A DNA stretch of 64,000 nucleotides from Candidatus Nanohaloarchaea archaeon (GCA_047617745.1 JBLGBN010000002.1:6746-70745), one strand, 5' to 3'. Shown: positions 7,573-31,893, counted from the stretch's first letter. Numbers and translations: made by a program. Notes: generated by a model from the sequence alone, not told the origin.

Positions 7573-7634
7573 ACTTGGAATATTAATTTCCGAAGTTTTG
7601 AATACTTTTATTCCGCGCTGAAGAAGTAAGAGCT

Positions 7635-8261: not shown

Positions 8262-8284
8262 CTGCCGCAATTATTAACGCCGGA

Positions 8285-8941: not shown

Positions 8942-8990
8942 ACCAGTCACATACAAAACTTGTTTTAACTAGAACTTTCAACCAGTACTC

Positions 8991-9527: not shown

Positions 9528-9568
9528 GACAACACAGATAAAAGATTCTCTCCTCTCTATTTGTATAG

Positions 9569-13005: not shown

Positions 13006-13033
13006 TTTAAAGTAGAAATAAAAGCAAATGGAG

Positions 13034-14494: not shown

Positions 14495-14520
14495 AAACTG
14501 AATCTTGAGGATTAACTGAT

Positions 14521-17500
14521 TTAACTTCTTCCATGGAGGGCAAAGACTGCTGTAGCAGTTACAAACAGCGCCACAATCTGGAATGCCTGGATCCCTGGAA
14601 CTTCCTGATTCCCTACACTACCTGTTCCACCTGCATCCTCTACAACGCTGACCTGAACTGAGTCGGATCCGAGAAGGTTTGAGTTAACCGCGTCAGCCCT
14701 GACTGTAAGAGCGTCATTGTTGAGGTTGAGGTTTCCTCCTCGCACCTCAATGTTGTAGGTTCTGGAGCTCTGCGGTCCTATCGTGGTTCTGAACTCCTGT
14801 CCTTCTTTCTCCACAAAGGATGCGAACTGGTCGGCGGACGGATCGCTGCTATCCTGCTCCATTGTAACATCAAAGGTCTGCTCGGTTCCCCTGACGTTGA
14901 TAACCTCGAAGGAAACCGTTCTGGACTGTCCTAGAGGGACATCAAGCTGGTCCTGGTTGAAGTGGACCGGCCAGTCCGAGAACCATGCACCGTTGAAGCA
15001 GGAAATCTCCGGCTGACCTGTCACATCCTGTATTTCGATCTTGTCGCCCGGCTCAAACACTGTTCTCTCCTCAACATCTGTCTGGTATTTGCTCTCATCA
15101 TCTCCTCTGAATACACAGCTTCCGTCTAGTTTCCCTACGCCCTGAACTGTTCTGTCGGTATCACAGTAACGGGTGTTACATTCCTGGGTCGCGAGATACT
15201 CCGAACCGTCGTCTCCGCCGCAGAATCCTTTTGTAGCTGTTCTATCGAACTGGTTGCCTGTCGGGACAGGTGTTGTTCCTGGTGAACTGGATCCAGGTGT
15301 GGATTCATAGCTTCCGTGCCCTCTCTGGATCATGTGCTCGTTCCAGGAATCATCAATACCTCCTTTAACAGCCTGAGGATAAGTATCTACATAATCCGTG
15401 TCAAACCATCTTACACCCTCGTCTCCATAAAGATTGTTCTGGTTACAGAACTCTGACTGGTAATCCTGATCGTACCATATAGCAAAGTCGTCCTGACCAT
15501 CAATTTTCTGGCAGAACTCCCGATCTTCTTTGAATCTCCCGACGTCCTCTCCAGGCTCCTCGGTGTTGGCATAGTTACCCTGGTCAACAAGTCTCTCTCC
15601 TTCCGGCGCACTAGGATCGTAGCATGAGTTGAGGGAGTCGGCGCACGCATAGTCTCCCCGGTATCTCTGTGAGTTCTCCGATTCTCCTATCTGTTCAACG
15701 AAGTATTCAAGCCGGTCATCTCCGCAGATCGGCTGCTCGAATTCCTCTGCAAGGTTTCCGGAGCTATCCTGTTCCCAGTAGAAGTCTTCCGCAACAACAC
15801 GACAACCACCATCTTTTGTGGAAAGGCATTCAGGACTAGAAACATCTATTCCCAATCCTGTATCAGGCCCTGTAAGATCCATCTTGAAACCTACGTTCGT
15901 ACCGGTCACATCACTTGAACTCAGAGCAGCCTGCCAGCTCCCATCAGAGGGTGTCAGTTTTACATCACCCGCGTTGTTAACCATATCGTCTGGATCAATC
16001 CAGACACCGTCACCTGCCTCTACAGCTACACCTTGATGTTCGTCTGCGGCTTTGAAACCAGATTTTGCAACTGCGGCAAATGAGTTAGCGAACGCCTTCT
16101 TTCTCTTGTCGACCGAGTCGGCATCTGTCGAGCCTCTCTGATCGGATTCATGCCGGTAGTATGTACTGTAAGGCGGATAAGGGACACCTGTAGTATCTAT
16201 ACTCCATGTAAGACTTTTGGTAATAGCCCATGCATCGGCATCGGCTCCGCCGACCGAGTTCTCGTAGAAAGGCTGGTCATTCGGATCGTAGAACTGTGGT
16301 TCCATTCCGTCTTCAAGCTGGTCAGATCTCTCCTGCAACTGGTTTGCATAACCGGTGAAACCTTCAAGCTTGTTCTCTCCATCAGAATCGCCCTGCGGGT
16401 TATAGTCTTCTTCTCTCAGTCCTTCCTGGAAGAAGCTGTAGAAAGTCTGCCCGCTCCCCCTGGAAGGCTTTACAACCGTGTTTTCGGCTGAATCATCACA
16501 GTTAATTTCGTCAAACCTAGGGTTTCCACAGTTATCCTCCATAGCTGTACCTGATCTATCGCCTTCAGGGTTGTGCTCGCTGTGCTGAGGAGGATTCATG
16601 TTATCATGCCAGTAGTAGGCTATATTATGTGGACTGGATTCATCCCCGTTTGTGATAAGATCGTTTCCAGGACCTCTCAGATACTCCTGAGCCAGTTCGC
16701 TGTCTAGATCGTACCATTCACCTCCCGCATCTTTGTAATCAGGGTGAGATGTATCACAGTTCCCGTTCTCGTATGCTTCGTTGTTAATAACGCCTTGATC
16801 GTCCATACAGTATTCATCTCCCTCTAGGTTCCAAGGCTGATCGTAATCAGGCTGTCCAACGCTATCATCTATATTGAGGCAGACCTCCCAGTCAGGGCTG
16901 TTGCCTCCCTCCTCGTATGGATCAGTGGAGCGGTTAGGCGCAACGTTTCCAACATAACCCTCAGAAACTTCGTTTCTCTTCAGTATACAGTCGTTAATGT
17001 TATCGACCTCTCCCTGGAAATGTCCCGGGTTCTCCTCGAACTGATCCTCGTTTATCTCAGGACCTTCCATGTAAACCCAGTAAGTATTTTCTTCGTCTCC
17101 ACCAGGGCCGTGGTAGTCAGACGGCGTTCCTGTACCGCTACCAGTATCATCCCTGTCCGTATCACACTCTATCAGCCTTTCCCCAGTTTGTACACTGACC
17201 TCATTGTTTTCCCAGATGCTGTTAACCTTCTTACAGACCGAGTAGGAATCAGTGACGTAGGCAATTTTCTTCTCAATAGTTATCGCATCCTGAGGATTGT
17301 CCCACTCCGGATCTCCACGAGTACCGGATCCTTCAACCGTCTGCATATCGACATAAACCAGACATGTAGTATCAGAACCACAGTCTTCGTTTAATCTACT
17401 GGTTAACTGTGAATCACTCAGATGTCTAAAACCGGTTCCTCCGTCCGAACGATCAGCGTAGTACCGACCTACAGTATCCTCTCCACTGGGTCCTTCAGTT

Positions 17501-18921
17501 CCAACGACCTCCCCATCATGAATTACTGCCCAGCCATCTCCGTAACCTTTTGGGCCGTCTGCATCAACAGTTAAAGTGTGGTCATAACCACACCAGACTG
17601 AGCCCTCCTCTTCCTTGGTTCCACTCTGAGCATCGAATTCTTTGGATCCCCAACTACTACTGTCATGCGCAGTAAACCGGGTATAAGTACCTGCGGGATC
17701 GTTATCAGGTTTGTCGGAATACCCTTCTATAGAATTACCATCTACATCTCTTTCATTAGTATCAGAGCCTCCATCAACTACGCTGTAACTTTCGTCACAG
17801 TCAACAACTCTGTTGTCATCCCAGTCCCTAGTATCTCCTACTTCACAGTCATAATCATCAGGTTCTCCACACCTATAGCATGTATCAGTATAACCACATG
17901 ATCTATCCTCTCCTTCCCCACTACATTCATAATCACAGGCGTAAGACTCGGTTGTACTACAACTTCCTGAAGCCTCTTGAACAGGCCCCTCAGCATGGCT
18001 CTCACTACAATCTTCCCTCCAGATCTGATCCTGATTCCTTATCTCGTAGTACTCGTTGTCATTCTGGTAATCCTTATTTTCATCAACATTTGAATTACAG
18101 CTATCAAAACCACTTCCACAGGAATCACTGCTGTCGCATTCAGGGTCTAAAGTGGTTTCATCATTATTACAGCTCATGCTTCCCTGACCTTCCGGTATCT
18201 GACGGTCATGTTTCTCGAAAAGCCGGCCGTAATCATACTTACAGTTTATTTCCGGAATATTGGAGCTGTCTGTATCCTCTTCTGACTCCTGACCATCAGG
18301 ATAATCCTGGAGGTTCTGATTATCTATATCCTCATTTTCTTTACCGTCCCCACAGGTAACCGGTTCTCCGCCTACAACATCACCGGACTCGGCCGGAGTT
18401 GGAGGATCGATTACCCTATCCTGGTATGAGTTGGCTGTGTAGACTGTTCCATCCGGGAACTCGCTTCTGTCATATTCATGGTAATCTAGTCGTCCTCCGC
18501 CATAGTTTTCTCCTATTGAGGAGGGCCATCCAGGTTTTAGGTATCTGTAGGCATCATTAATATGTGTCTCATTTAACTGGTCGCTGGAGGACTCCCATTC
18601 GTCCCCTATAACCTCTCCACCTTTCCTGATTTCCCCCTCGTAGAAGACAGAGAAATCAGTCTGTAAGTCTCCAAAGTTACCTTCACCGCCTACAATCAGA
18701 GCGGTGAGGTCTGTGTCCCAGATGTCGAACTCGGATTTATCGTCGTAGTAAGGTGCTACACACCCCGGGTCGTCTCCATCTGTTTTACCGTCATCGTCGT
18801 TATCCACTTCGTCTGTACACTGTGTATCCGGGGATGCTCCTCCATCGGTTACATAGGATGCTCCTCCTCCTAGAAGAAGGAGTGATGCGGTTACTAGAAC
18901 AAGGATTTGGCTGTATTTCAC
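14521..18921 (-). CDS. giant hyper-acidic cysteine-rich cell-surface protein with C-terminal hydrophobic anchor
   Basis: The ORF is open to ATG 18987 (1488 aa). GTG 18921 gives a canonical signal peptide (VKYSQILVLVTASLLLLGGGAS) and lies about 27 nt downstream of a TATA-like TTATTTATAC (18944-18953, minus strand). The protein contains dozens of Cys, very high D/E/N/G content and a CTDEVDNDDDGKTDGDDPGC motif. A C-terminal beta-rich domain (SRTVSFEVINVRG...) follows, then PGIQAFQIVALFVTATAVFALHGRS. Confidence 0.8.
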   Translation of the reverse strand: MKYSQILVLVTASLLLLGGGASYVTDGGASPDTQCTDEVDNDDDGKTDGDDPGCVAPYYDDKSEFDIWDTDLTALIVGGEGNFGDLQTDFSVFYEGEIRKGGEVIGDEWESSSDQLNETHINDAYRYLKPGWPSSIGENYGGGRLDYHEYDRSEFPDGTVYTANSYQDRVIDPPTPAESGDVVGGEPVTCGDGKENEDIDNQNLQDYPDGQESEEDTDSSNIPEINCKYDYGRLFEKHDRQIPEGQGSMSCNNDETTLDPECDSSDSCGSGFDSCNSNVDENKDYQNDNEYYEIRNQDQIWREDCSESHAEGPVQEASGSCSTTESYACDYECSGEGEDRSCGYTDTCYRCGEPDDYDCEVGDTRDWDDNRVVDCDESYSVVDGGSDTNERDVDGNSIEGYSDKPDNDPAGTYTRFTAHDSSSWGSKEFDAQSGTKEEEGSVWCGYDHTLTVDADGPKGYGDGWAVIHDGEVVGTEGPSGEDTVGRYYADRSDGGTGFRHLSDSQLTSRLNEDCGSDTTCLVYVDMQTVEGSGTRGDPEWDNPQDAITIEKKIAYVTDSYSVCKKVNSIWENNEVSVQTGERLIECDTDRDDTGSGTGTPSDYHGPGGDEENTYWVYMEGPEINEDQFEENPGHFQGEVDNINDCILKRNEVSEGYVGNVAPNRSTDPYEEGGNSPDWEVCLNIDDSVGQPDYDQPWNLEGDEYCMDDQGVINNEAYENGNCDTSHPDYKDAGGEWYDLDSELAQEYLRGPGNDLITNGDESSPHNIAYYWHDNMNPPQHSEHNPEGDRSGTAMEDNCGNPRFDEINCDDSAENTVVKPSRGSGQTFYSFFQEGLREEDYNPQGDSDGENKLEGFTGYANQLQERSDQLEDGMEPQFYDPNDQPFYENSVGGADADAWAITKSLTWSIDTTGVPYPPYSTYYRHESDQRGSTDADSVDKRKKAFANSFAAVAKSGFKAADEHQGVAVEAGDGVWIDPDDMVNNAGDVKLTPSDGSWQAALSSSDVTGTNVGFKMDLTGPDTGLGIDVSSPECLSTKDGGCRVVAEDFYWEQDSSGNLAEEFEQPICGDDRLEYFVEQIGESENSQRYRGDYACADSLNSCYDPSAPEGERLVDQGNYANTEEPGEDVGRFKEDREFCQKIDGQDDFAIWYDQDYQSEFCNQNNLYGDEGVRWFDTDYVDTYPQAVKGGIDDSWNEHMIQRGHGSYESTPGSSSPGTTPVPTGNQFDRTATKGFCGGDDGSEYLATQECNTRYCDTDRTVQGVGKLDGSCVFRGDDESKYQTDVEERTVFEPGDKIEIQDVTGQPEISCFNGAWFSDWPVHFNQDQLDVPLGQSRTVSFEVINVRGTEQTFDVTMEQDSSDPSADQFASFVEKEGQEFRTTIGPQSSRTYNIEVRGGNLNLNNDALTVRADAVNSNLLGSDSVQVSVVEDAGGTGSVGNQEVPGIQAFQIVALFVTATAVFALHGRS

Positions 18922-19019
18922 GTCTAAAACTTTTCTCTTCCCTGTATAAATAACCAGTGTGAACCATCTTAGATTAGGCCAGGGCATACGTACTCCGCAA
19001 CTTTTTACAACTAAAGAAC

Positions 19020-19047
19020 AGTAACAAATTCCGTTAGATTTAATAAT
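19020..19047 (+). promoter_or_regulatory. shared promoter block AGTAACAAATTCC-N5-ATTTAATAAT upstream of lipoprotein gene 1
   Basis: The 13-mer AGTAACAAATTCC followed by an A/T box also occurs at 20592-20618, upstream of the paralog. The A/T box lies about 25 nt upstream of ATG 19069. Confidence 0.5.
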
Positions 19048-19068
19048 TCTGCGGTTTCAAATAGGGTT

Positions 19069-20340
19069 ATGGATCTCGGGCATGTAAAGAGCTTCCTGAG
19101 TTCGGAAGACAGATCTCAGGAAAGCATATCACAGGACCGTAGAAAGGTGTTAATGAAGACAGGTATAGCCATGACAGGAGCAGCTGCTTTAGCAGGCTGT
19201 AATGACGGTCAAACAGAGGATCCATTACCCAACGGAACACCCGGAACAGACACACCAACACAAACAACAGAAAACACACCAACAGACGAGCCAAAAGAAA
19301 CACCACAAGAAGAAGGAGAAATAGAAAACCAAGCCGACCCCAACCTATCCTTCGAACAAGTCTACACAATGACTGAAGATGAGTTCCAGTCAGAATACAC
19401 AGAAGCATTCGACCCTAACGCCCAACACCTAGAAGAAGGAGAAATAAATGTTGTATTAGAACAGGACGAGAAAATCGACCAGTTAGAGAAAGCTAAAGAA
19501 ATAATAATTGAAAACGATGACGTAAATCCTAGAGATATAGGATCTGCACTGAAAGAAGTCGCCTACAACCAACTTGAATATGACACAGAAGAAGTAGTAA
19601 TCGATCCAAGAGCAACAGGCGGAGGAGGAAAATACTTCTCAATATTCACCAAGGAAGACGGCGACTGGCAGAAAAGCCTGAACAAACTAACATACCTCCT
19701 AAAAGACGGAGAAGAACCTACCAACAAGAACGAAGAACTTCTCCATGACATCTGGAACCAAGATATAATATCAAAAGGAGCAGCAACAGGATTCGAAACA
19801 TGGAGAGAAGGAGTAGAAAGATCCAACTTCTTCACAGAAAGAATGACTGGGCCTAGATCAGGACTGGCCTCAATGCGCAACCTCAACTACCTCACTGATG
19901 AGATAATTGTAAACGATTACAAGAGAGAAACTGATGCAGAAGGTAATAGGGATGCTAACTTCGGGGACATTAGCTTCACAAGACCTGTTGCTAATATGAT
20001 GAGGGATATCCAGGACTTCGATGAAAACGAAGTATTCAACGCCGAAGTCGAACTCACAAAAAACCTGACAGAATTCTACCACGGATCCTACGAACCAGAC
20101 GAAAATACGTTCATACAGGTAGCAACAGAAGAAGAACTGAAAACCGACTTGGAAGAAGACGTAGCAGATAAACCATACCAGCTAACAACCCTAGACGAAA
20201 CAACACTATACGCATCAGAAATCAACCGGGAAACCCATAAAGAAAACATCTGGAACAATACCGTGCCAGAGAGCCAGTTCCCTGAACATGAATACCCTGG
20301 TAACGTAAAATTACCTGAAGAAATTCTAGAAGACAAGTAG
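19069..20340 (+). CDS. Tat-signal lipoprotein, acidic, unknown function (paralog 1)
   Basis: Twin-arginine motif DRRKVLMKTG, hydrophobic core, and lipobox ALAGC. A T/P/E-rich linker (TPTQTTENTPTDEPKETPQEE) follows. The C-terminal half aligns with the 20641-21951 product. Confidence 0.8.
   Translation: MDLGHVKSFLSSEDRSQESISQDRRKVLMKTGIAMTGAAALAGCNDGQTEDPLPNGTPGTDTPTQTTENTPTDEPKETPQEEGEIENQADPNLSFEQVYTMTEDEFQSEYTEAFDPNAQHLEEGEINVVLEQDEKIDQLEKAKEIIIENDDVNPRDIGSALKEVAYNQLEYDTEEVVIDPRATGGGGKYFSIFTKEDGDWQKSLNKLTYLLKDGEEPTNKNEELLHDIWNQDIISKGAATGFETWREGVERSNFFTERMTGPRSGLASMRNLNYLTDEIIVNDYKRETDAEGNRDANFGDISFTRPVANMMRDIQDFDENEVFNAEVELTKNLTEFYHGSYEPDENTFIQVATEEELKTDLEEDVADKPYQLTTLDETTLYASEINRETHKENIWNNTVPESQFPEHEYPGNVKLPEEILEDK
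19177..19256. repeat. 80-nt patch, 78/80 identical to 20785-20864
   Basis: Hand alignment shows mismatches only at A/G (19227) and A/C (19245). The patch encodes the signal-peptide end, the lipobox and NDGQTEDPLPNGTPGTDT in both paralogs. Confidence 0.9.
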
Positions 20341-20352
20341 GAAGATAGAAGG

Positions 20353-20358
20353 TTTTTT
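20353..20358 (+). terminator. T6 tract 13 nt after the lipoprotein-1 stop
   Basis: Oligo-T is the usual archaeal termination signal. The paralog has a T6 in the equivalent position (21977-21982). Confidence 0.35.
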
Positions 20359-20599
20359 ACCCCCCATATTGGAAGACATCAACCGGATGCCTATTCTCCT
20401 GATAGGTGTTCTGTGGACCATCACTTCCTTCATAATCCTGAGGATATTCTGTTCCTGTCGGGAAGTGCGTGTATGGGTCTTCTCCAGATCCAAGCGTTGT
20501 GGTTGAACCGGATTTCTCACCCAACCACTGCTGCTCAGGATTATCGTTGCTCCCAAAAAACCTAGTGAAGTATATTTTATCACTCGAAGCTAGTAACAA
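20357..20599 (-). pseudogene. remnant of a giant secreted-protein gene (only the last ~60 codons retained)
   Basis: The fragment NDNPEQQWLGEKSGSTTTLGSGEDPYTHFP...QENRHPVDVF aligns with the C-terminus of the 880-aa protein (YDNPEQQWLGEKAGSTTTLGSGEDPYTHFP...QQNRHPRDVF). Its apparent start codon sits inside the shared promoter block, and it has no signal peptide. Confidence 0.6.
20459..20545. repeat. 87-nt patch, 85/87 identical to 22082-22168
   Basis: Hand alignment shows the only differences at 20510 and 20512. The patch covers the conserved C-terminal coding segment of the remnant and of the 880-aa gene. Confidence 0.9.
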
Positions 20600-20618
20600 A
20601 TTCCATCACATTTATAAT
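20592..20618 (+). promoter_or_regulatory. shared promoter block AGTAACAAATTCC-N5-ATTTATAAT upstream of lipoprotein gene 2
   Basis: Duplicate of 19020-19047. The A/T box is about 27 nt upstream of ATG 20641. Confidence 0.5.
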
Positions 20619-20640
20619 GCTGGCCACATAATAAAAACAT

Positions 20641-21951
20641 ATGACCAATTCCGGCAACGACCAAATGGGGAACGCACTGGAACAGGGAAGCAGCAACGAA
20701 CCTGCATCAGCACACCTAGAACCACAAAAGGAAGAAACAAAAATGAGCTCCACAAGGAGAAGCTTTCTAGCAACCATGACAGCAGGAGCAGCTGCTTTAG
20801 CAGGCTGTAATGACGGTCAAACAGAGGATCCATTGCCCAACGGAACACCCGGCACAGACACACCCGGAACACAAACAGAGGAAAACACACCAACAGAAAC
20901 AGAAGAGCCGGAACCAGAAATAGACACAATACAGGAAGTAGACGCAGACTTCGAAGAAGAATACAGAGAAACATACGACCAAGACCAAAACTCAATCCTA
21001 ACAGAACAAGAAGTCGGCGAACTACAACAACTAGACACCAAAATAGACCAGATAGAAAGAGCAGCAGAAATCCTCATAGACAGAAGAGGAGAAGAATGGG
21101 AAAACCTCGGCCCACAACAAAAAATCAACAAACAAATACAGACCGAAATAACAGAAAAACTCCGAGAAATCACCGACAACCAACTCGGATACAACCAAGA
21201 CGGCATCAACGACGTAATAATAAGAGACACAAAAGCCGGCGACTACCAAGACATCGCCTCCATCTTCACAAAAAACGACAACGGAGACTGGGAAAAACAT
21301 CTCGGAAAATGGGACACCATCAGAAAAAACAACGAACCACTTCAAGAACGCCCAGAAACCGAAGCAGAAGGAGTCACAAACGAAGCATGGGAACAAGACA
21401 ACCCATACCAAGGAATGGCAACATCAATCCACGTCTGGAGAGACGGAGTAGAAAAAGGCAACACACTGACCAGACTGCCTAACGAAAAAGAGATTTTAGG
21501 AGGATTTTCAGCTCTAGACCATGGAAATGATTCGATTATTGTAAACGAGAACAAAGAGATAGAAAACTGGGGAGAAATAGGTTACTCCAGAGAAGTATCA
21601 AACCTGCTGGTTGACATACAGGACCTTGATGAAAACGACGTATTCAACAAAGAAGTAGAACTCATGAGGAACCTGACCGAGTTCTACCACGGAGAATACG
21701 AAGCCGGGCCCAACAACTTCATTGCAGTTGCGACAGGGCAACAGCTCGAAGAAGACATGGAGGAAGGACTGGCCGAAGATGCATACGAACTTGTTGAAAT
21801 CAACGACAAAAAACTCTACGCATCAGAAGTCAACCTCGAACAACACAAAGAAGACACTTGGAATATACAGATCCCTGAAAACAAATGGCCGGAAAGAGAC
21901 TACCCAGGCAACGTCAGCCTACCTGAAAGACTCTATGAAGACGATACCTGA
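20641..21951 (+). CDS. Tat-signal lipoprotein, acidic, unknown function (paralog 2)
   Basis: STRRSFLATMTAGAAALAGC (twin-Arg plus lipobox), a T/P/E linker, and a C-terminal region homologous to paralog 1 (RNLTEFYHG.YE, LYASE.N, YPGNV.LPE). ATG 20743 is an alternative start. I prefer 20641 because its TATA spacing matches paralog 1. Confidence 0.8.
   Translation: MTNSGNDQMGNALEQGSSNEPASAHLEPQKEETKMSSTRRSFLATMTAGAAALAGCNDGQTEDPLPNGTPGTDTPGTQTEENTPTETEEPEPEIDTIQEVDADFEEEYRETYDQDQNSILTEQEVGELQQLDTKIDQIERAAEILIDRRGEEWENLGPQQKINKQIQTEITEKLREITDNQLGYNQDGINDVIIRDTKAGDYQDIASIFTKNDNGDWEKHLGKWDTIRKNNEPLQERPETEAEGVTNEAWEQDNPYQGMATSIHVWRDGVEKGNTLTRLPNEKEILGGFSALDHGNDSIIVNENKEIENWGEIGYSREVSNLLVDIQDLDENDVFNKEVELMRNLTEFYHGEYEAGPNNFIAVATGQQLEEDMEEGLAEDAYELVEINDKKLYASEVNLEQHKEDTWNIQIPENKWPERDYPGNVSLPERLYEDDT
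20785..20864. repeat. second copy of the 80-nt near-identical patch
   Basis: See 19177-19256. Confidence 0.9.
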
Positions 21952-21976
21952 AGGCACCTCAATTAATAACACTATC

Positions 21977-21982
21977 TTTTTT
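21977..21982 (+). terminator. T6 tract after the lipoprotein-2 stop, between convergent genes
   Basis: An oligo-T run in the 37-nt convergent spacer. Confidence 0.3.
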
Positions 21983-21988
21983 CCATTT

Positions 21989-24631
21989 CTAATTACCAGT
22001 CTGTAGGAATACATCTCTAGGATGACGGTTCTGCTGATAAGGACCTACTACAGCTGTCTGCCCCGGATATGTATTTTCCTGCGGGAAGTGCGTGTATGGG
22101 TCTTCTCCAGATCCAAGCGTTGTGGTTGAACCCGCTTTCTCACCCAACCACTGCTGCTCAGGATTATCATACTGGTCATAGTAGCTGCCAGGGTACGGAA
22201 CCTGGATAGCACTGGTTTCGGTACTAATTCTCCCAAAACCAGGATCTTCACCGGCTCCATTCGTTCCTTCAACTATATACCCCGTTCCTTCACTGCTTGG
22301 AGCACCACCGTTTTCGTAGAGTGTGACTGCTCCTGACATTCCTGCTGTATCTGCATCATTTATCTTCTGTCTTAAACCGAATGTACATGCGTACTGCCTG
22401 TTGTCCTGTTCTACGTTGGAGTTTGAAGGCATTTCTCCTACAAGGTACATGTCGCCACCTGTGTACTCGGTTGACATTTTAACCAGGTTGTCTCCGGTTG
22501 GCATGTCCTGTGGATCAGCTGGTCCGTGCCAGCACTCCGCCATAGCTTCCAGAGGCTCTGAACCTGCTACACCTTCCGGGTCCACACCTGTTGCTCCCTC
22601 CCATTTCTGGATCTCGGAAGCGTTTATCTGTAGACCTGCGTAGTTGCCAGGTATCTCGGTTGACTGAAGTGCGTAAGTATTGACCGTTATAGCCTGGGCT
22701 TCAGCAGGGAAGTCACATTCCCATGCTCCTGCAGAATCCTCTCCTACGTATGTCCAGACCTTTGGATCCTGGCACTTGCCGGCGAATCCTCCAGCGAAGG
22801 TGTCATAATCACCCATCGTTCCCTCCGAGTAAACGTTGTCGTTAATATCTCCGGCATTAGCTGTCAGCCATGCAGTTTCAAAGTTGTCCGGGTTATCGTT
22901 ATGGTATCCATCCAGTTCCTGCATATTTTTGTCTGCCCAGTTCCGGACTTCGTGTGGCTGTCTAAACCTTGTCTTGTATTCCATTTCTGCCTGGTGAAGT
23001 GTCTGGAAACCTGTGTTCGGGACGAAACCGTTTTCGTTCGCCCATTCAGGTCCGGTAGGTATCGCTTCCAGAGGGACAAAGTACTGTACCGCCGGCATCG
23101 GATCCTGCGCAAAGCCTCCACTGTCGGCAACTTCATTGTAGCTATCTGCACAGAAACTATCTGCATCTCCCACAGAAGGCCCACCGTATGATGTTGCTGC
23201 ACCAATTGTAGTAGCTGTACTCTGGTCAACTGTTTCGGTACATCCAAACTCTACAGGCTCCTTATTTCCATCATAGTCGAGCTGTGACGCCTGCTGTTTC
23301 TGATTATAATCACAGGAAGAGTAAGGAGACTCCGATCCAGGGCTGTACGCGCTCTGTATATCAGAGACTGATGAAACCGGATCGTAGAAAGCAGCTTTGT
23401 TGCCGCTTGAATCCTTAGCTACAACAGGCTGTGTACAGTCCACCTCAATCTCTGCCTGTTCCCTGTTGTTGCTGCATATATCGTCTTCCAGATCCGTTTC
23501 TCCATCATCATTATTGTCTACGCCATCCTCGCATGACTGTACTGAAACCCAGCTGTAAGGTTCCGGTGTACCACCGTAAGGACCTTTAGGTTCAATATTC
23601 CAGTTTGAGCCATCTGTGTAACATCGGTAAAGTCCTTCCTCGAAGTAACTCGTGTTGGTATCAACTGTCTGGCCGCCACTTCCATCTCTACACAGCCAGA
23701 ATCCGTGCCTTCCTGTCTGACCTGCCGGGACCTCCTCAGCACCGACCGCTAGTTCGCTGTATGCTACCGGGATCCCATCCGAGCCCTGTATCTGGTAAGA
23801 CCTTCCGGCATGAATAGGGCTTATATCGTTAGGAAGCCATGAATTAGCCCCATCATTGAACTGGTTATCATCTGTAAAGCTTTTGGTGGCTATAGAGCAA
23901 GGGTCATCATCGCAGTTCCCATCCTGAAATGTACCGCCGCCACTAGCTAACTGGCAGTCACCTCCTCCTTGATCCATCTCAGCCTGATCACAGTCCAGTA
24001 CAGAAGAAAGTTTTGATTCTATTATGCCGTCAGATGCTTTAAAAGTGCCTCGTTCATTTGTAGGGCCGGTATCTGTCTCCCTTATCATCATTACGCCTGA
24101 ATCTGCCTGTGGAGAGGGATTAGTGCTCCATTCTTGGTTAGTTAAGAACATCGCATGTAGAACGTGAGGGTTCACACCAGTCTCCATCTGAATGTAAAGA
24201 TATGGCGCATAGTTCTTGGAACCGGAGTTAGCCTGGACATCAAGAGAACCTCCGGAATGAGTGGTATCTTCTCCCGGAACCGGATCTGTTAAACTTATCT
24301 CAAATTCTCCCAGCGGACATGAGTAATCTCTTGGAACATTTATAGATGTCTTACCATACGGATTAGTTCTAGAGCCTGCCTGATCCTGATACTGTCTCTC
24401 TCCCGTTTCTGTAGTATGAAGTTCAAACGTTTTGGTAACACCACAGATCTCTACCTCGGTACTGGAGCAGTCTGCTCCTGTGACACAATCATAGTTCTCA
24501 ACATCGATAACAAGATTTGTTGACTCACCATAATTTACCTCCTCATTGGGAAAGTTGAACTCCATCTGTGCAGAACCTAAACTTAGCAAGAATGAAGTTA
24601 ACAGTAATACTGCCGCCAGCTTTCTTATCAT
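21989..24631 (-). CDS. large hyper-acidic cysteine-rich secreted protein (no membrane anchor)
   Basis: Sec-type signal peptide MIRKLAAVLLLTSFLLSLGSAQ, many Cys, and a CEDGVDNNDDGETDLEDDIC motif. There is no C-terminal hydrophobic segment. A TATA-like TTTTTATTC lies about 25 nt upstream of ATG 24631. Confidence 0.85.
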   Translation of the reverse strand: MIRKLAAVLLLTSFLLSLGSAQMEFNFPNEEVNYGESTNLVIDVENYDCVTGADCSSTEVEICGVTKTFELHTTETGERQYQDQAGSRTNPYGKTSINVPRDYSCPLGEFEISLTDPVPGEDTTHSGGSLDVQANSGSKNYAPYLYIQMETGVNPHVLHAMFLTNQEWSTNPSPQADSGVMMIRETDTGPTNERGTFKASDGIIESKLSSVLDCDQAEMDQGGGDCQLASGGGTFQDGNCDDDPCSIATKSFTDDNQFNDGANSWLPNDISPIHAGRSYQIQGSDGIPVAYSELAVGAEEVPAGQTGRHGFWLCRDGSGGQTVDTNTSYFEEGLYRCYTDGSNWNIEPKGPYGGTPEPYSWVSVQSCEDGVDNNDDGETDLEDDICSNNREQAEIEVDCTQPVVAKDSSGNKAAFYDPVSSVSDIQSAYSPGSESPYSSCDYNQKQQASQLDYDGNKEPVEFGCTETVDQSTATTIGAATSYGGPSVGDADSFCADSYNEVADSGGFAQDPMPAVQYFVPLEAIPTGPEWANENGFVPNTGFQTLHQAEMEYKTRFRQPHEVRNWADKNMQELDGYHNDNPDNFETAWLTANAGDINDNVYSEGTMGDYDTFAGGFAGKCQDPKVWTYVGEDSAGAWECDFPAEAQAITVNTYALQSTEIPGNYAGLQINASEIQKWEGATGVDPEGVAGSEPLEAMAECWHGPADPQDMPTGDNLVKMSTEYTGGDMYLVGEMPSNSNVEQDNRQYACTFGLRQKINDADTAGMSGAVTLYENGGAPSSEGTGYIVEGTNGAGEDPGFGRISTETSAIQVPYPGSYYDQYDNPEQQWLGEKAGSTTTLGSGEDPYTHFPQENTYPGQTAVVGPYQQNRHPRDVFLQTGN
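22082..22168. repeat. second copy of the 87-nt near-identical patch
   Basis: See 20459-20545. Confidence 0.9.
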
Positions 24632-24699
24632 ATAAAATGGAGCGTTACTCTTGAATAAAAACTTTCGGAAAAAAGAAAGGGAAGAAATGTGGAGACCAG

Positions 24700-25980
24700 C
24701 TACCTTATCATGTTCCAGATCAGCTGGTCCCGGGCTTTGAGCAGATCGGCTTGCTCTCCGCCTGAGGGCATTGCACCCATGACTCCCATGTAGGAGACCT
24801 CCTCTTCTTCCTGTTCCTCGTACTCTTCCCAGTACTTTCTCAAACGGTTGTGAACGCCCGCAACTTCATCACGTGTGTTACCTGCTCCACAGGTGTTGCC
24901 GACTCCGACAACTGCGACTTCTCCATCGAACTCTTTGACCAGTTCTTCGACTTTCGCCACGGCCGGTTTGTAGGCCTCGTAGATCTCCTTCTTCATCGGT
25001 TTCGATGCTTCAGGAGGACTTTGTTTGATAATTATTCCTTCAAGCGGGATGTCGTGCTCTACCGCTACATCCTCTATCTTGGATTTTTCTACTCCTGGAC
25101 CTCCCATCATTACTCCAACTCCTTCTGAGATTGAACCGGTTTCCTCGCCTTCAAACTTTGCTCCGGCGTCTACAGTGATGATCGCTTCCAGGTCGTTTTC
25201 TTCGGCAATTGTCTCAAGTGCGTCGCCGTACTTTCCTAACCGGGATCCAGGCCCGCTGCTTTTGACTACGTGAACTGTTTCATCTGCGATCTGCTCCTCG
25301 CTGTGCACAATGTTTTCAGCTACCTCTTCAACTTCTTCGCTCTCGATCAGCTTCGCAGCCACAAGCGGACCGATTGTGTCACCGATAGGTGCCTGGTCGA
25401 TGAAGGCTCTCGTTGCCTCTTTCTGTGACTCCGCGAGCTCTTTGTAGATCGGAACCATCATTGTAACCATCTGTACAAGGTAGATCATCTGTGTCTTCTT
25501 GATTAACTGTCTGAAATGTCTCATTACCTTGAAGATCTGGTGAGTTCCCATAACTCCCTTGAAAGCCATGTTGAGATCGGCCAGTTCCTCTTCGTCTTCA
25601 GTTTCTGCATTTGCGTGAACGAATCTCTTGAATTTGTCTTCAGAGGAGTCAAGCACGTTCTCCAGCTTTCCGACCATACCTGCCGGGTCTATACCGGTTG
25701 GAGCGGAGAACTTGAAGTCTCGCAATGATTCAAACTTGTTCCTAGTTCCATCCTCCATACCGGAGTTGAACTTGTCCAGGAACATTACCTCGGTGTCGTT
25801 TCTGTAGGCCTCAAGATCAACCAGTGCGGACTCCAGCTTTCTGTCCGCCTGCCATATCATTATTTTCGGGAAAAATACCAGTAAAGCCGGCAGTATCAGA
25901 AATGATAGTATCTGTACAACCATGAAGATTTGCTGGAGTAAACCGTCACCGCCAATAGCGAAAAGTCCTTCTAGAACCAT
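24700..25980 (-). CDS. conserved archaeal membrane-associated protein (DUF1512-like, tentative)
   Basis: N-terminal TM helix (IFMVVQILSFLILPALLVFFP) followed by a soluble domain (GPGSRLGKYGD, VGVGNTCGAGNT). It is on the same strand as the 880-aa gene, 68 nt upstream. The family assignment is from memory and is not verified. Confidence 0.55.
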   Translation of the reverse strand: MVLEGLFAIGGDGLLQQIFMVVQILSFLILPALLVFFPKIMIWQADRKLESALVDLEAYRNDTEVMFLDKFNSGMEDGTRNKFESLRDFKFSAPTGIDPAGMVGKLENVLDSSEDKFKRFVHANAETEDEEELADLNMAFKGVMGTHQIFKVMRHFRQLIKKTQMIYLVQMVTMMVPIYKELAESQKEATRAFIDQAPIGDTIGPLVAAKLIESEEVEEVAENIVHSEEQIADETVHVVKSSGPGSRLGKYGDALETIAEENDLEAIITVDAGAKFEGEETGSISEGVGVMMGGPGVEKSKIEDVAVEHDIPLEGIIIKQSPPEASKPMKKEIYEAYKPAVAKVEELVKEFDGEVAVVGVGNTCGAGNTRDEVAGVHNRLRKYWEEYEEQEEEEVSYMGVMGAMPSGGEQADLLKARDQLIWNMIR

Positions 25981-28161: not shown

Positions 28162-28635
28162 CTAGTCCTCTTTATCGTCCTTCTTCACCTTGTCCAGTAC
28201 AACCTCCTTCGTTGAGCCGGAGTCACTGGATTTGGAGGACTCTCTTTTCTCCTTCTTTCTCTGGTAGTTTCTCAACTTTATCTCCTCCTTCACCTTTTCG
28301 TAAATCTTCTTGAAAGGGTATAATGCCATCATGATCAGGTGGTAAGGTATCTTCAGTACTGTTCTTGCTATTGAGTAGGCTGAAGCCAGAAAGCTATACG
28401 CCATGTAGAAGACTGCGCCCATAAACGCGTAGGTCAGCATCTGGTTAAATGAGAAACTGAAGCTGAATAGCTGCGTCAACGCAACGTAAAATGCTCCGGA
28501 TAGCACAGAGACGGTTATCGTCTCGAACACCATTTTCATGACTTTAAACGCTACTACAAACGCTATTACCAGTAAAACGATAAGAACTGCTGTAGCCATG
28601 TCCTGTGGTAGCTGTGATATTATTGGTATGTTCAT
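28162..28635 (-). CDS. integral membrane protein with Lys-rich cytoplasmic tail
   Basis: About four TM helices and a C-terminal KKEKRESSKSS...KKDDKED tail. Its ATG overlaps the stop of the upstream S-layer-like gene (ATGA at 28632-28635). Confidence 0.6.
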   Translation of the reverse strand: MNIPIISQLPQDMATAVLIVLLVIAFVVAFKVMKMVFETITVSVLSGAFYVALTQLFSFSFSFNQMLTYAFMGAVFYMAYSFLASAYSIARTVLKIPYHLIMMALYPFKKIYEKVKEEIKLRNYQRKKEKRESSKSSDSGSTKEVVLDKVKKDDKED

Positions 28636-31334
28636 CTTCCGAGCACCTTGTAAAGTGGATCTCCTTCCTCAGGGATAAGACTTGTGTAAGCTATGAACCC
28701 TATTACAAGCAGTACAAACACCACTACAGCCAGAATTATTATCATTCCGCTACCGCCTCCCTCCTGGGTGTTCGAAGGTGAAGGAGATCCAGGCTGCTGC
28801 GTATCTCCCTGTGAACCGGCGGTGCTTGAGCGGGCCTCAACCATGTTAACCTTCTGCTCGGTTGCCTCGTAGACTCTCTCCGCTTTCTCGTAGTTCCCTG
28901 CATTGTAGGCGTTTTCAACCTCGGTAACATTAAGCGAGGCAGTGTTCAACGTATTCTGGTTTTCCGTGCTTGAAACCTGTGACTGAAGACTGTTTATTCT
29001 GCTTCTAAGCGTGCTTGCCTGTTCAGAGTAATCCGGAACTACATCCGCGGTTACGTCAATTACTACAGTTGCCTGATCCTGTGAGGACTCTGCTGTTACC
29101 TCGACTGACCCGCTGGAAGATACTTCAGACAAAGTAAGTTCAACTATCTCCGTCTCTCCACCCTCTATCTCTATACTGTCCGCATCTACTGACATCTGAT
29201 CCGAGCTGAATGAAACCGACTCAACTGTCATTGAACCGGTGTTTTCAACTGTGATCTCTCTGGTAACGGTTTCTGATTCTGTCAGTGTTCCCAGATCCAG
29301 GGATTCATTTACAGAGAACGATACTTCCTGTGACTCGGCTTCTGAGTCCAGCTCTACAGGTACTTCCACGTCCTCGATTTCAACCATTCCATTGTAGTAG
29401 CCCGGACCTGAAACTGTGTAGTTTACCTCTACCAACTGCTGGTTGTTGGAGGAGTTGAGTTCTACTGACTCCGGCCCGGTATCTACGAAGCTGGAGATAT
29501 TACCTGTTACATCGGGCCGGATCTCTTCGGAGCTGTTTTCATTTGCGAGATAGTAAACCCTGAAATGTCTGTCGATCTCTTCGTTTTCATCTGAAGACAC
29601 GTTAAGCTCTGTTATCAGCTCAGCACATATCGTCTGGTTCCTGTAATCACATTCAGGAAGGTCCATGTCGACAGTAATCGAGTCGTTGTAAGCGTTGTCC
29701 GCCAGAACCACTTCACCGTTAGCCTCTTCAACTTCTGACATGTTGACGTTGAGAGTGACATTCACCGTGGAGTCTCCAGGGACAAACACATCTGATGTCC
29801 CGTTAACCCATGTGATTCCTTCCAGCTCTCCGGTGACTGAAGGTTCAAGTTCAAGATCGGAGCTCCCAAGATTCTCAACTGTAAAGTTGTAACTATAGTT
29901 TCTACCTGTTATGATTGTATCCTCTATATCGCCCGAAATGTTGAATGTTCTATTTACATCCTCGACGAAAAAGTTGTCCGTAGAAGCGACGTATTCCCCG
30001 TAAATGTTCTGTGATTGAACATCAATATCATAGGTTCCTTCCTCCCAGTCAGAGGGGATCTCCACATCTCTATGGAAAATACCGTTATCGTATTCCATTT
30101 CCTCCAATGTAAAGTTCTTGAGATCGTTTACATCGAGGAATGTTCCGTTAGTTATTGATATATTTCCTTCCTCTATCCTTGATCTCGGTATTGTTTTAGA
30201 GGAGTAAAGACCCTCAAATGCTATCTCGAGGTTGTAGTCTCCCCCCTGCCTAACGGAGGACGAGGCACCAAACCTGATTGTATAGTGCTGTACAGTCACA
30301 TTCAGTCTTTCCACAGCCTCTGTTTCCGGTCCTGTAGCGTTGTAGACGAACTGGACATCATCACCGTAAGCCGTGGTGTTTAGATCCGGGAATGTGAAAT
30401 CTGCGGAATAAACGTTGCCGTCCTCCTGTACATCCATATTTCTTCTCTCCTGCCATTCAGAGGTTGAACGGTTCCAGACATTCATTGTAATATTTACGCT
30501 CTCAGGCTCTTCTCCCGTAACTTCGTACTCTGTGCTGATCTCTGCGCTTCTCTCACAGCTAGGGAAAAGCACTGAGCCGCTGCAGCCCGGCGAATCAAAT
30601 GAATGTATATTCCCCTGCATCGGCGGCTCCGTTGTCACAGGGATCGAAAGCGATCCTGAAGGACTATCGATTGAGTCACCAGTATTTGTTACATTGATAT
30701 GCATCAGGTATTCGCCGCCGAAGTTGTCAGGTACCTCCACAAAACCGTTGAAGTACTCTGATCCTTCCTGATTTCCTAGATTCTGAATTGTGTGAGTGTG
30801 AGTTCCATTTGTGAAGTAAATGTTAGCTGTAGCCCCTGTTTCAGGCTCGTCTTTCCATTCATCTGTTACGTTGATCCTGACGTTCGTGGTTTCCCCTGGT
30901 GGAAGTGTGGTGGAAGTGTCGGAAAGAAGCTCTACGCTATAGTTCCCGAATTCGAGCGTTTCGGAACTATAGAAGGTGTCCTCGGTACCGGTTGTTTCCT
31001 GAAGAGTGTAGTTAACCTGTTTTCCCCTGGAAAGTTCCGGATTAATATCTGCGTACCAGTAACCTTCGCTCAGATGCTGCATATCGCCTATCTCGCCGTT
31101 TGAGGCGTTGTATGTATAATAGAAGTCGAAACCAAATTCTACGTCTGCCTCTGTTACAGGTTCGCCGTTGTTAGTGACTTCAACCATTCTCGCAGAGTCG
31201 GATAATTCGCCAACCGTGGAGGTAGAGTAAGGTTCGTCTAGAGGAGTTATACTGTATGCAGAGGCTGCGCCTGTTAGCAGAAATAGAGATGTTAGAAGGG
31301 TTATTAATGAGGAAAACCTGTTTTTGGTATACAT
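28632..31334 (-). CDS. S-layer-like surface glycoprotein candidate (CARDB-like repeats, C-terminal TM anchor)
   Basis: Start chosen at ATG 31334 (MYTKNRFSSLITLLTSLFLLTGAASAYS signal peptide). The longer ORF to 31421 would overlap the upstream methyltransferase gene. I counted roughly 30 N-x-S/T sequons by eye. Repeated beta-domains resemble FTVENLGSSDLELE and ITVENTGSMTVESV. A helical segment comes next, then an S/T/P/G linker and the TM anchor MIIILAVVVFVLLVIGFIAY. Confidence 0.8.
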   Translation of the reverse strand: MYTKNRFSSLITLLTSLFLLTGAASAYSITPLDEPYSTSTVGELSDSARMVEVTNNGEPVTEADVEFGFDFYYTYNASNGEIGDMQHLSEGYWYADINPELSRGKQVNYTLQETTGTEDTFYSSETLEFGNYSVELLSDTSTTLPPGETTNVRINVTDEWKDEPETGATANIYFTNGTHTHTIQNLGNQEGSEYFNGFVEVPDNFGGEYLMHINVTNTGDSIDSPSGSLSIPVTTEPPMQGNIHSFDSPGCSGSVLFPSCERSAEISTEYEVTGEEPESVNITMNVWNRSTSEWQERRNMDVQEDGNVYSADFTFPDLNTTAYGDDVQFVYNATGPETEAVERLNVTVQHYTIRFGASSSVRQGGDYNLEIAFEGLYSSKTIPRSRIEEGNISITNGTFLDVNDLKNFTLEEMEYDNGIFHRDVEIPSDWEEGTYDIDVQSQNIYGEYVASTDNFFVEDVNRTFNISGDIEDTIITGRNYSYNFTVENLGSSDLELEPSVTGELEGITWVNGTSDVFVPGDSTVNVTLNVNMSEVEEANGEVVLADNAYNDSITVDMDLPECDYRNQTICAELITELNVSSDENEEIDRHFRVYYLANENSSEEIRPDVTGNISSFVDTGPESVELNSSNNQQLVEVNYTVSGPGYYNGMVEIEDVEVPVELDSEAESQEVSFSVNESLDLGTLTESETVTREITVENTGSMTVESVSFSSDQMSVDADSIEIEGGETEIVELTLSEVSSSGSVEVTAESSQDQATVVIDVTADVVPDYSEQASTLRSRINSLQSQVSSTENQNTLNTASLNVTEVENAYNAGNYEKAERVYEATEQKVNMVEARSSTAGSQGDTQQPGSPSPSNTQEGGGSGMIIILAVVVFVLLVIGFIAYTSLIPEEGDPLYKVLGR

Positions 31335-31368
31335 ATAGGGTTGAATTGACTTTGTAGGGTTAAAAAAT

Positions 31369-31893
31369 CTACTCGTACCGCGCAAGTAAAAGCGTTTCAA
31401 ACCAGAGGCTTCTCCTCTCAACTACCTCCAGACCATATCTATCGATTAACCTTTCATGATCAGCTCTGTCCGATACTATCACAAGCGCAAAACCTTCTTC
31501 CTCCAGGTAATCATCGACCTGGTCCAGAAATTTCTCGGTTAACTCGATCCCTGTCTCCCCACCTCTCCAGATTTCCTCATCCCCAGCGCCTTCCTCACCG
31601 GGAAGATAGGGAGGGTTGAAGGTTATCAGATCAAAACTTTCCTCCACATTTTCAAACAGGCCGGATTCTATGACATCGATTTCAAACCCTTCTTCATCTG
31701 CCCTCCTTCTGGTTTCCTCTACTGCCGCGGGGTTGATATCAACCGCAGTAACTCTGGCGCCGCTCTCAGCCATTTCGAGAGCTATTATGCCTGACCCTGT
31801 CCCAATATCGAGAGTTTTCTTGCCTTCTAAGTCCAGCTCTGATACATAGTTTTTCAGCAGAAAAGAATCCTCGGCAGGTTCGTAGACCGTCAT
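31369..31893 (-). CDS. HemK-related N5-glutamine/N6-adenine class methyltransferase (archaeal Mtq2-like)
   Basis: SAM motif LDIGTGSGIIALEMA and catalytic FNPPYLP. The small archaeal hemK-related size also fits. Confidence 0.85.
   Translation of the reverse strand: MTVYEPAEDSFLLKNYVSELDLEGKKTLDIGTGSGIIALEMAESGARVTAVDINPAAVEETRRRADEEGFEIDVIESGLFENVEESFDLITFNPPYLPGEEGAGDEEIWRGGETGIELTEKFLDQVDDYLEEEGFALVIVSDRADHERLIDRYGLEVVERRSLWFETLLLARYE

Follow-up and report, generated by a model that had tools for sequence, protein, structure and literature searches.

The DNA examined here is a 64,000-nt stretch from a Candidatus (Ca.) Nanohaloarchaea archaeon (GCA_047617745.1, JBLGBN010000002.1:6746-70745), and "the window" refers to this whole stretch. 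Positions 14521 to 25980 hold a gene island encoding two giant exported proteins (G1 and G2) and two predicted lipoproteins of the twin-arginine (Tat) pathway (Lp1 and Lp2), together with the remnant of a further G2-type gene. The island occupies a chromosomal slot between a DUF1512 gene and the herA-rad50-mre11 genes, and its arrangement, in which G2 and a convergent gene for a Tat-signal protein lie beside G1, was found in at least 8 nanohaloarchaeal lineages. Five long open reading frames (ORFs) and one fragment make up the studied region:

14521..18987 (open frame; likely 14521..18921), minus strand: G1 (ORF call)
19069..20340, plus strand: Lp1, 423 amino acids (aa) (ORF call)
20357..20548, minus strand: G2-type 3' remnant, 63 codons plus stop (translation)
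20641..21951, plus strand: Lp2, 436 aa (ORF call)
21989..24631, minus strand: G2, 880 aa (ORF call)
24700..25980, minus strand: DUF1512 transmembrane (TM) protein (PF07431 + PF23542, expect value [E] 1e-51)

A first-pass annotation of this DNA had described five elements here, all of which are present in the ORF calls, and had pointed to a halophilic archaeon; the organism is a nanohaloarchaeon. Identical proteins are on record as hypothetical ACI9LV_000177, ACI9LV_000178, and ACI9LV_000181 from a Candidatus Nanohaloarchaea archaeon metagenome-assembled genome.

G1 is 1,488 aa long when read from the ATG at 18987 and 1,466 aa from the GTG at 18921. The start was placed at GTG 18921 because the G1 family consensus (M...K.LV) begins at G1 residue 23 and a TTTATA box is located ~27 nt upstream of this codon. 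The protein is most likely translated from a leaderless mRNA, giving 1,466 aa, and the annotated 1,488-aa form (ACI9LV_000177) probably starts 22 codons too early. G1 begins with a Sec-type signal peptide and has a TM anchor at its C terminus, in agreement with the anchored surface protein of roughly 1,470 aa that had been described earlier, and both features occur in members of the family; the protein ends 7 residues past the TM segment. A PGF-CTERM reading of the anchor was rejected, as no NCBIfam sorting-signal hidden Markov model (HMM) matched, even at E <= 10 on isolated C termini. The features within G1, numbered on the 1,488-aa form, are as follows:

14545..14601, minus strand: C-terminal TM anchor, hydrophobic residues 1463-1481 of 1488, preceded by a conserved VPGI(G/Q)
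14638..15180, minus strand: membrane-proximal immunoglobulin (Ig)-like beta-sandwich, residues ~1270-1450, AlphaFold2 predicted local distance difference test (pLDDT) score 64-81
18760..18819, minus strand: acidic disulfide-clamped loop, C57-TDEVDNDDDGKTDGDDPG-C76, putative Ca2+/metal-binding motif

The AlphaFold2 model of G1 residues 400-1488 (14-sequence alignment) reached a pLDDT of 44.7, and its usable part consists of the C-terminal Ig-like sandwiches alone, for which Foldseek returned generic MG, PapD, and HYDIN-type Ig folds (E about 1e-6). The acidic loop scored E 1e-4 and 21.5-22 bits against NF033662 (acid_disulf_rpt), under the 41-bit cutoff, and C57 and C76 are nearly invariant across the G1 family. 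Homologues covering nearly the full length number eleven (32-56% identity), with a few partial matches in addition; the named sources are all nanohaloarchaeal, and the inspected loci of unnamed metagenome homologues carry nanohaloarchaeal gene order. G1 was present, in single copy, in every nanohaloarchaeal locus examined. In Ca. Nanosalina sp. (MFB6241322.1, 2,372 aa), the N-terminal ~630 aa of G1 are fused to domains that serve in extracellular binding, namely GEVED (729-803), VWA (1148-1248), and C-type lectin (2264-2344); thus, the N-terminal region of G1 acts as a portable extracellular module.

G2 has a Sec signal (nt 24569-24631), which is its only hydrophobic segment, and its own TATA box, as expected from the earlier description of a convergent, secreted 880-aa protein that lacks an anchor. 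It can be divided into a variable N-terminal part of ~240 aa and a conserved body at residues 400-880, and it contains a loop of the same kind as that of G1:

23474..23533, minus strand: acidic disulfide-clamped loop, C367-EDGVDNNDDGETDLEDDI-C386

This loop matched NF033662 at E 7e-4, under the cutoff, and weak EF-hand and MopE motif matches were obtained with the loop of the orthologous G2 from Ca. Nanohaloarchaeum antarcticus. One G2 homologue was returned by a word-indexed search, and an exhaustive HMM search of 1.84 billion cluster representatives identified 84 at E <= 1e-3 and 44 at E <= 1e-10, mostly 740-950 aa in length. Among 37 G2-family sequences, C367, D369, D372, D380, D383, and C386 are invariant or nearly so, many Cys residues occur throughout, a Sec signal is present in all members with an intact N terminus, and a second hydrophobic segment is present in none (0/37); an anchorless G2 acting at the surface would have to be retained there in some way. 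An AlphaFold2 model built from the 37-sequence alignment (pLDDT 81.3; predicted template-modeling score 0.56; residues 400-880 mostly >90) comprises N-terminal beta-sandwiches, the acidic loop at low confidence, and, at the C terminus, a large alpha/beta body. Foldseek searches of PDB and BFVD with the whole chain gave weak Ig-like matches only (query-normalized TM-score <= 0.10), and the C-terminal body of ~480 residues is thus a confidently predicted fold for which these whole-chain searches found no structural relative.

The first-pass annotation had described the two giants in the same terms; they belong to unrelated families. Homology between them was rejected, since BLAST and hhalign aligned only the signal peptide and the 20-residue loop (CxDxVDNDDDGxTDxxDxxC). 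Metal binding by this loop, and the disulfides of G1 and G2, are putative. As had been noted earlier, neither giant contains internal tandem repeats. The extreme Asp/Glu richness claimed for both does not hold: Asp plus Glu amounts to 21.1% in G1 and 15.8% in G2, against ~20% in the other 50 ORFs of the window, so that "hyper-acidic" describes a proteome-wide trait, and the low isoelectric points of the two proteins are due to low Lys plus Arg (6.5% and 4.4%). The claim of Cys richness stood, with 40 Cys in G1 (2.7%) and 20 in G2 (2.3%) versus roughly 0-1.7% in most other ORFs of the window. The giants are therefore distinguished by Cys richness, low Lys plus Arg, and depletion of N-glycosylation sequons, and not by acidity. 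Counts of N-X-S/T sequons, with expectations from 300 shuffles, were as follows:

G1 family: 42 observed, 162 expected; 11 of 11 members depleted
G2 family: 170 observed, 324 expected
Tat lipoproteins: 23 observed, 23 expected; Lp1 neutral
Cytoplasmic neighbors: neutral
929-aa Ig-like protein, 28632..31421, minus strand: 30 observed, 14 expected

Depletion, about 4-fold in the G1 family and about 2-fold in the G2 family, appears to be specific to the Sec-exported, disulfide-rich giants, which would thereby avoid N-glycosylation. This avoidance, seen at the sequence level, argues indirectly against G1 and G2 as S-layer glycoproteins and fits a surface that needs to stay unmodified. The 929-aa protein, about 2-fold enriched, is C-terminally anchored, has weak HYDIN/VesB-like Ig and DUF1573 matches and an orthologue in NAR1_11506, and is itself fairly fast-evolving (68% identity to the orthologue in locus L003 and 27% to that in L006); as an S-layer glycoprotein, it is a plausible candidate and a better one than G1 or G2.

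Lp1 and Lp2 are paralogues (42% identity, E 2e-91), as had been claimed. In Lp1, the twin arginines are residues 24-25 in QDRRKVLMKTGIAMTGAAALAGC, followed by a lipobox LAGC at Cys44 (nt 19138-19200 from twin arginines to lipobox); in Lp2, they are residues 39-40 in STRRSFLATMTAGAAALAGC, within S-RR-SFL, with LAGC at Cys56 (nt 20755-20808). Each protein has a hydrophobic core behind the twin arginines and a lipobox with its invariant Cys, which is the sole Cys of the protein and precedes a Thr/Pro/Glu-rich linker of about 40-50 residues. Lp2 scored 16.1 bits against TIGR01409 (cutoff, 16.7) and matched PF10518 weakly. On these features, both are predicted to be Tat-exported lipoproteins. TATA-like boxes located 22-27 nt 5' of the start codons of Lp1, Lp2, and G2 suggest leaderless transcripts. 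The promoter regions of the two lipoprotein genes share a repeat:

19003..19042, plus strand: copy 1, 5' of Lp1, AGTAACAAATTCC...TTTAATAA; direct repeat family D4, spacing 1572 nt
20575..20614, plus strand: copy 2, 5' of Lp2, AGTAACAAATTCC...ATTTATAA; direct repeat family D4

No relatives of the window-type lipoprotein outside its own lineage were found among 5.8 billion proteins, and no Pfam or PDB match was obtained. By eye, collinear motifs can be seen between the window type and the type found in Ca. Nanohaloarchaeum antarcticus (KID..E.A; (F/Y)(H/F)(G/N)E(Y/G); W(N/D)I...PE...YPE), with no statistical support.

Across Nanohaloarchaea, the recurrent gene order is SpoU ... DUF1512 > G2 > < Tat-signal protein > G1 > HerA / Rad50-Mre11. 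Judged where the contig was long enough, it was seen in loci L001, L003/L004/L009, L005/L011, L007/L013, L010, L014, and L016 and in part in L015. The cassette formed by G2 and the Tat-signal protein is present in zero to two copies across the lineages. The loci compare with the window as follows:

L003/L004/L009: G1 56% identical to that of the window; one G2, then two lipoprotein-like genes
L005 = L011 = contig NAR1_11 of Ca. Nanohaloarchaeum antarcticus Nha-R1 (99% identical): G1 38%; two full G2/lipoprotein pairs
L007/L013, L014, L015, L016, L001, and L010: G1 36% (L007); one pair each, some cut by contig ends
L006: G1 35%; DUF1512 directly beside G1, no pair

Twin arginines, a lipobox Cys, and a Thr/Glu-rich linker were found in the partner proteins of the window (Lp1 and Lp2), L003, L005/L011, L007/L013, L015, and L016. 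Pattern-based scans of genomes returned only L009, with gene lengths and order as in L003, and those of metagenomes returned only L011. The linkage of lipoprotein and giant genes that the first-pass annotation had made its touchstone is thus conserved in related genomes. The gene preceding G2, which had been counted with the module, is indeed a same-strand TM gene (DUF1512), and its membership was rejected: it has its own oligo-T terminator after the stop, the TATA-like box of G2 lies 22 nt 5' of the G2 ATG, and its product is 92% identical to the L003 orthologue, versus 43% for G2. DUF1512 is therefore regarded solely as a conserved, independently transcribed syntenic neighbor.

The island differs from its surroundings in evolutionary tempo. 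Between the window and L003, identity is 80-95% in the flanks, 56% in G1, 43% in G2 (of which the N-terminal ~240 aa are not alignable), and 34-38% in the lipoproteins; between the window and Ca. Nanohaloarchaeum antarcticus, it is 65-73% in the flanks, 38% in G1, 26% in G2, and undetectable in the lipoproteins. By these comparisons, the island evolves far faster than its flanks and is the fastest stretch of an otherwise conserved neighborhood.

Duplication and loss have also left traces. The remnant of another giant gene, recognized in the first-pass annotation, is a G2-type 3' end: its translation, NDNPEQQWLGEKSGSTTTLGSGEDPYTHFP...RHPVDVF followed by the stop, is 69% identical (E 7e-21) to the C terminus of G2 (about the last 58 residues, 822-875) and 47% identical to the G2 of L003, and nt 20442-20545 are 90% identical to nt 22065-22168 in G2. 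A direct repeat of ~1.6 kb (19003-20545 versus 20575-22168) extends from the promoter element through the lipoprotein gene into the 3' end of G2; it is ~45% identical apart from two islands of ~97%, the signal/linker region and the remnant, which are attributed to gene conversion. The remnant ends in RHPVDVF, the resident G2 in RHPRDVF, and the L003 protein in RHPVEVF. From this L003-like C terminus and the retention of family-conserved motifs, we infer that the remnant is the stump of a second G2 that was once intact and then deleted, and not a duplication breakpoint. In Ca. Nanohaloarchaeum antarcticus, the two G2 copies (G2a and G2b) share 46% identity and the two lipoproteins share 55%, and each is nearer to its paralogue than to any gene of the window; thus, the pair was duplicated independently in the two lineages, and G2 and the lipoprotein have, on this sequence comparison, been duplicated as a unit at least twice.

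More recent change was seen in a 99.9%-identical strain (L002), which differs from the window at 24 positions over 21 kb. Fourteen of the 24 differences fall in Lp2, which is the microdiversity hotspot of the locus. Nine of these 14 form a tract, and L002 positions 10143-10254 are 100% identical to positions 19175-19286 of Lp1 in the window (Lp2 counterpart, 20783-20897), indicating ongoing gene conversion between Lp1 and Lp2 in the signal-peptide/linker regions.

The other border of the island is formed by a cluster at 9569-14494, comprising mre11 (Metallophos; 9569-10744), rad50 (10741-13005, plus strand), and, on the opposite strand, herA (13034-14494), which is the conserved right-hand synteny anchor in every locus; no nurA was noted in this cluster. 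Six of the 24 differences in L002 lie within 172 nt of rad50 (11658-11829), a pattern resembling a short tract of recombination, the gene being identical elsewhere. In L003, toxin-antitoxin-like pairs (PIN plus MazE; DUF3368 plus ribbon-helix-helix) occupy both island borders (2803-3418 and 14488-15282) and are absent from the window; such insertions are consistent with a recombination-prone region. Elsewhere in the window, and unrelated to the island, are two adjacent basic membrane proteins with bPH_2 (bacterial PH) domains (36907-38807, minus strand) and two paralogues of the LPG_synthase_TM family (50933-51982 and 56857-57870, minus strand).

In the cultured Ca. Nanohaloarchaeum antarcticus, the island orthologues are NAR1_11511-11515, which are unannotated. 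Loci L005 and L011 were equated with contig NAR1_11 because of their 99% identity and because the protein sizes of 368, 855, and 386 aa listed for gene IDs ...393 to ...395 in Table S5 of the supplementary information (SI) of its description (PMC6642349) fit L011 exactly. The mass spectrometry proteome of the enrichment (SI Table S4) includes NAR1_11510-11515 and NAR1_11516 (HerA), with NAR1_11510 annotated as "N-terminal transmembrane helix + DUF1512" and NAR1_11512 as carrying a TAT signal (pfam10518) (PMC6642349). Orthologues of the island proteins are therefore expressed. NAR1_11512-11514 constitute "region F," for which metagenome read recruitment was anomalous; this region differs between Nha-R1 and Nha-CHl, and small ORFs replace the 855-aa gene in the latter (PMC6642349). 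The best BLAST match of both antarcticus lipoproteins was a hypothetical protein of Haloarcula sinaiiensis (49% and 42%) (PMC6642349). In line with this, the H. sinaiiensis megaplasmid pHsi540 (NZ_CP073368.1; locus L012) was found to contain two tandem Tat-lipoprotein genes at 7261-9954, whose products share ~44% identity with NAR1_11512/11514 over 78% of the query. These homologues imply that genes have passed between the symbiont and the clade of its hosts (Halobacteria).

A surface and host-contact role for the island is plausible. The reading we favor, to which we give a probability of roughly 45%, a little short of an even chance, is that of a lineage-specific, diversifying surface island in which G2 is held by the lipoprotein and/or G1 and faces the host and viruses. 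G1 would be the constant element, exported through Sec, stabilized by ~20 disulfides, provided with an acidic metal-binding loop, and fixed by its C-terminal helix under an Ig-like stalk. The variable element would be the cassette of G2 and a convergent Tat-exported lipoprotein, with a Thr/Pro/Glu-rich spacer following the lipid-modified Cys. G2, unable to stay on the cell alone, would be kept there by noncovalent binding to the lipoprotein and/or G1. A role of the lipoprotein as tether or chaperone of its anchorless partner, which the first-pass annotation had put forward, is hypothetical. The ensemble may then form an exposed, nonglycosylated recognition surface contacting the haloarchaeal host, and exposure to host contact and viruses could explain why the genes diverge fast, are duplicated and converted, and are lost.

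Several observations weigh against this surface-island reading, and most of them favor its strongest competitor, in which unrelated surface and secreted proteins merely share a recombination-prone island as independent neighbors, with their adjacency and co-duplication as by-products. Every linked locus occupies the same orthologous slot, so the adjacency may be inherited synteny and not selected linkage. The G2 and lipoprotein genes are convergent, G1 and Lp1 are divergent, and the genes have their own promoters and do not form an operon. The mature domains of the window-type and antarcticus-type lipoproteins show no detectable homology (hhalign aligned the signal region only) and lack conservation across lineages, so that no conserved interface for G2 binding is apparent. 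The lipoprotein family exists in Haloarcula, where the pHsi540 neighborhood consists of hypothetical genes with no G2-like neighbor beside the lipoproteins; L006 is free of the cassette; L003 has two lipoprotein-like genes and one G2; and Lp1 has outlived its own G2 copy, remaining intact beside the reduced gene. The repeated pairing of lipoprotein and giant protein that the first-pass annotation had proposed thus stood as linkage in at least 8 lineages and as two duplications of the unit, and it is weakened as strict pairing by Haloarcula, L006, and Lp1. The toxin-antitoxin genes at the island borders of L003 also suit a shared, recombination-prone site, the partner protein of L014 has twin arginines and a hydrophobic segment without a lipobox Cys, and relaxed constraint could also account for the fast divergence.

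Other observations speak against independent neighbors. The partner slot retains a Tat signal and linker through G2 divergence to E values of about 1e-10 to 1e-18, and the lipobox Cys is present in all partners with readable N termini, L014 being the sole exception. The anchorless state of G2 in 37 of 37 members calls for retention if the protein acts at the surface, and two separate duplications each copied G2 and the lipoprotein together. We consider independent neighbors to be unlikely on this evidence, albeit a serious contender.

A different function for the pair, in which G2 is a host-directed effector (attacking, for example, the S-layer or membrane) and the lipoprotein an immunity factor, the two being engaged in an arms race, has a small chance of being correct. 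It would suit a secreted, anchorless G2, a fast-diversifying pair, duplication of the cassette, and an orphan lipoprotein beside a degraded G2, since systems of this kind typically contain orphan immunity genes, and Nanohaloarchaea do breach host envelopes (PMC7443923; 10.1101/2023.02.24.529834). However, no enzymatic or toxin domain was found in the 37 G2 members, no PADLOC or PHROG match was obtained, the convergent orientation is atypical of effector-immunity operons, and the combination of a conserved body with a variable N-terminal beta-sandwich in G2 is more like a binding module.

Least probable of the alternatives is an S-layer in which G2 forms the lattice and is carried on a stalk of lipoprotein or G1: an S-layer-like surface on nanohaloarchaeal cells (PMC7443923; 10.1101/2023.02.24.529834), a single-copy G1 in every locus examined, expression of the proteins, and an anchorless/anchored pair that recalls two-component S-layers would all accord with it, but L006 lacks the cassette, whose copy number varies, sequons are depleted in G1 and G2 while the adjacent 929-aa protein is two-fold enriched, the "cell wall protein" listed by Hamm et al. 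is a different protein, NAR1_11153 (PMC6642349), and searches gave no match to an S-layer family or to PGF-CTERM.

The surface-island reading can be taken further. G1, G2, and the Tat lipoprotein might form a disulfide-stabilized, Ca2+-dependent, unglycosylated complex that sets host specificity, with the variable N-terminal beta-sandwich part of G2 as the ligand-binding tip and with a lipoprotein slot that can be refilled with haloarchaeal genes (mimicry of the host surface or co-option of its envelope proteins), the last point being suggested by the antarcticus partners, which share 42-49% identity with lipoproteins of Haloarcula. In this full form, the proposal is speculative and rather improbable. 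Host recognition and attachment by DPANN nano-archaea is an open question, and the proposals made so far for Nanohaloarchaeota are SPEARE proteins and generic lectin/Ig proteins. The island offers a second, compact attachment candidate, composed of three uncharacterized families in a conserved architecture, which is directly testable, since the cultivable Ca. Nanohaloarchaeum antarcticus contains and expresses it, since it diverges faster than the rest of its neighborhood, and since it overlaps a strain-variable region. Through sequon avoidance, G1 and G2 also stand apart from the product of the adjacent gene, the probable S-layer glycoprotein. Should the families prove to be independent variable surface proteins, the result would be useful only as the annotation of a metagenomic island.

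Searches of Pfam, NCBIfam, PHROGs, PADLOC, and PDB with all products and family alignments returned only DUF1512 and sub-threshold motifs, bearing out the earlier remark that the giants contain no enzymatic motif that can be named. With regard to a defense or viral origin, there was no match in PADLOC or PHROGs and nothing in viral contigs or a phage collection. A literature search found no description of NAR1_11511-11515 or of this gene combination, which had likewise not been recognized as a described system in the first-pass annotation, and the SPEARE proteins are different. SPEAREs resemble the island giants in being very large, mostly extracytoplasmic proteins of the same organisms, proposed to act in host attachment and with extracellular parts that vary from lineage to lineage, and they share a C-terminal anchor with G1; they differ in their length of 3,300-8,500 aa, and laminin-G, serine-protease, and toxin-like regions occur in them together with a conserved type III restriction-enzyme domain on the cytoplasmic side (PMC6642349). 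G1 and G2, by comparison, have 1,466-1,488 and 880 aa and no Pfam domain, G1 being essentially without a cytoplasmic tail and G2 without an anchor. Polymorphic toxin/immunity cassettes differ from the island in having a toxin domain and a partner gene downstream on the same strand, in place of a convergent one.

A loop of the form CxDGxDNDxDGxxDxxDxxC links G1 and G2 to NF033662, MopE (PF11617), and the Ca2+-binding C-rich domain of teneurins, the match to the teneurin-4 C-rich domain being weak (E 0.33). In contrast to the NF033662 family, there is one loop per protein, at 19-22 bits against a cutoff of 41, and the remainder of G1 and G2 is unrelated. The S-layer of Sulfolobales consists of a lattice protein, SlaA, on a membrane stalk, SlaB. 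The likeness lies in a large, anchorless exported protein encoded beside a smaller, membrane-tethered one that could hold it off the membrane; however, no sequence or fold similarity exists, the tether here would be an N-terminal lipid on a Tat substrate and not a C-terminal TM helix, some lineages dispense with the cassette, and the proteins avoid N-glycosylation sequons. Tat lipoproteins known from Haloferax and Haloarcula secretomes carry a twin-arginine signal and a lipobox, and Lp1 and Lp2 resemble them in their S/T-RR-x-F-L motif, hydrophobic core, L-A-G-C, and Thr/Pro/Glu-rich linker; the antarcticus-type partner has H. sinaiiensis homologues of the same architecture at 44% identity, and the window-type mature domain has none. 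Hypervariable metagenomic islands encode cell-surface proteins in environmental prokaryote populations, and the locus shares with them a fixed syntenic slot, anomalous read recruitment, fast divergence, duplication, loss, and gene conversion, but it differs in having a specific, recurrent three-family architecture in place of glycosyltransferases or a random assortment of genes. A hypervariable surface-protein locus in a host-dependent microbe is a known phenomenon, and what is new are the protein families that fill it, which are absent from curated databases.

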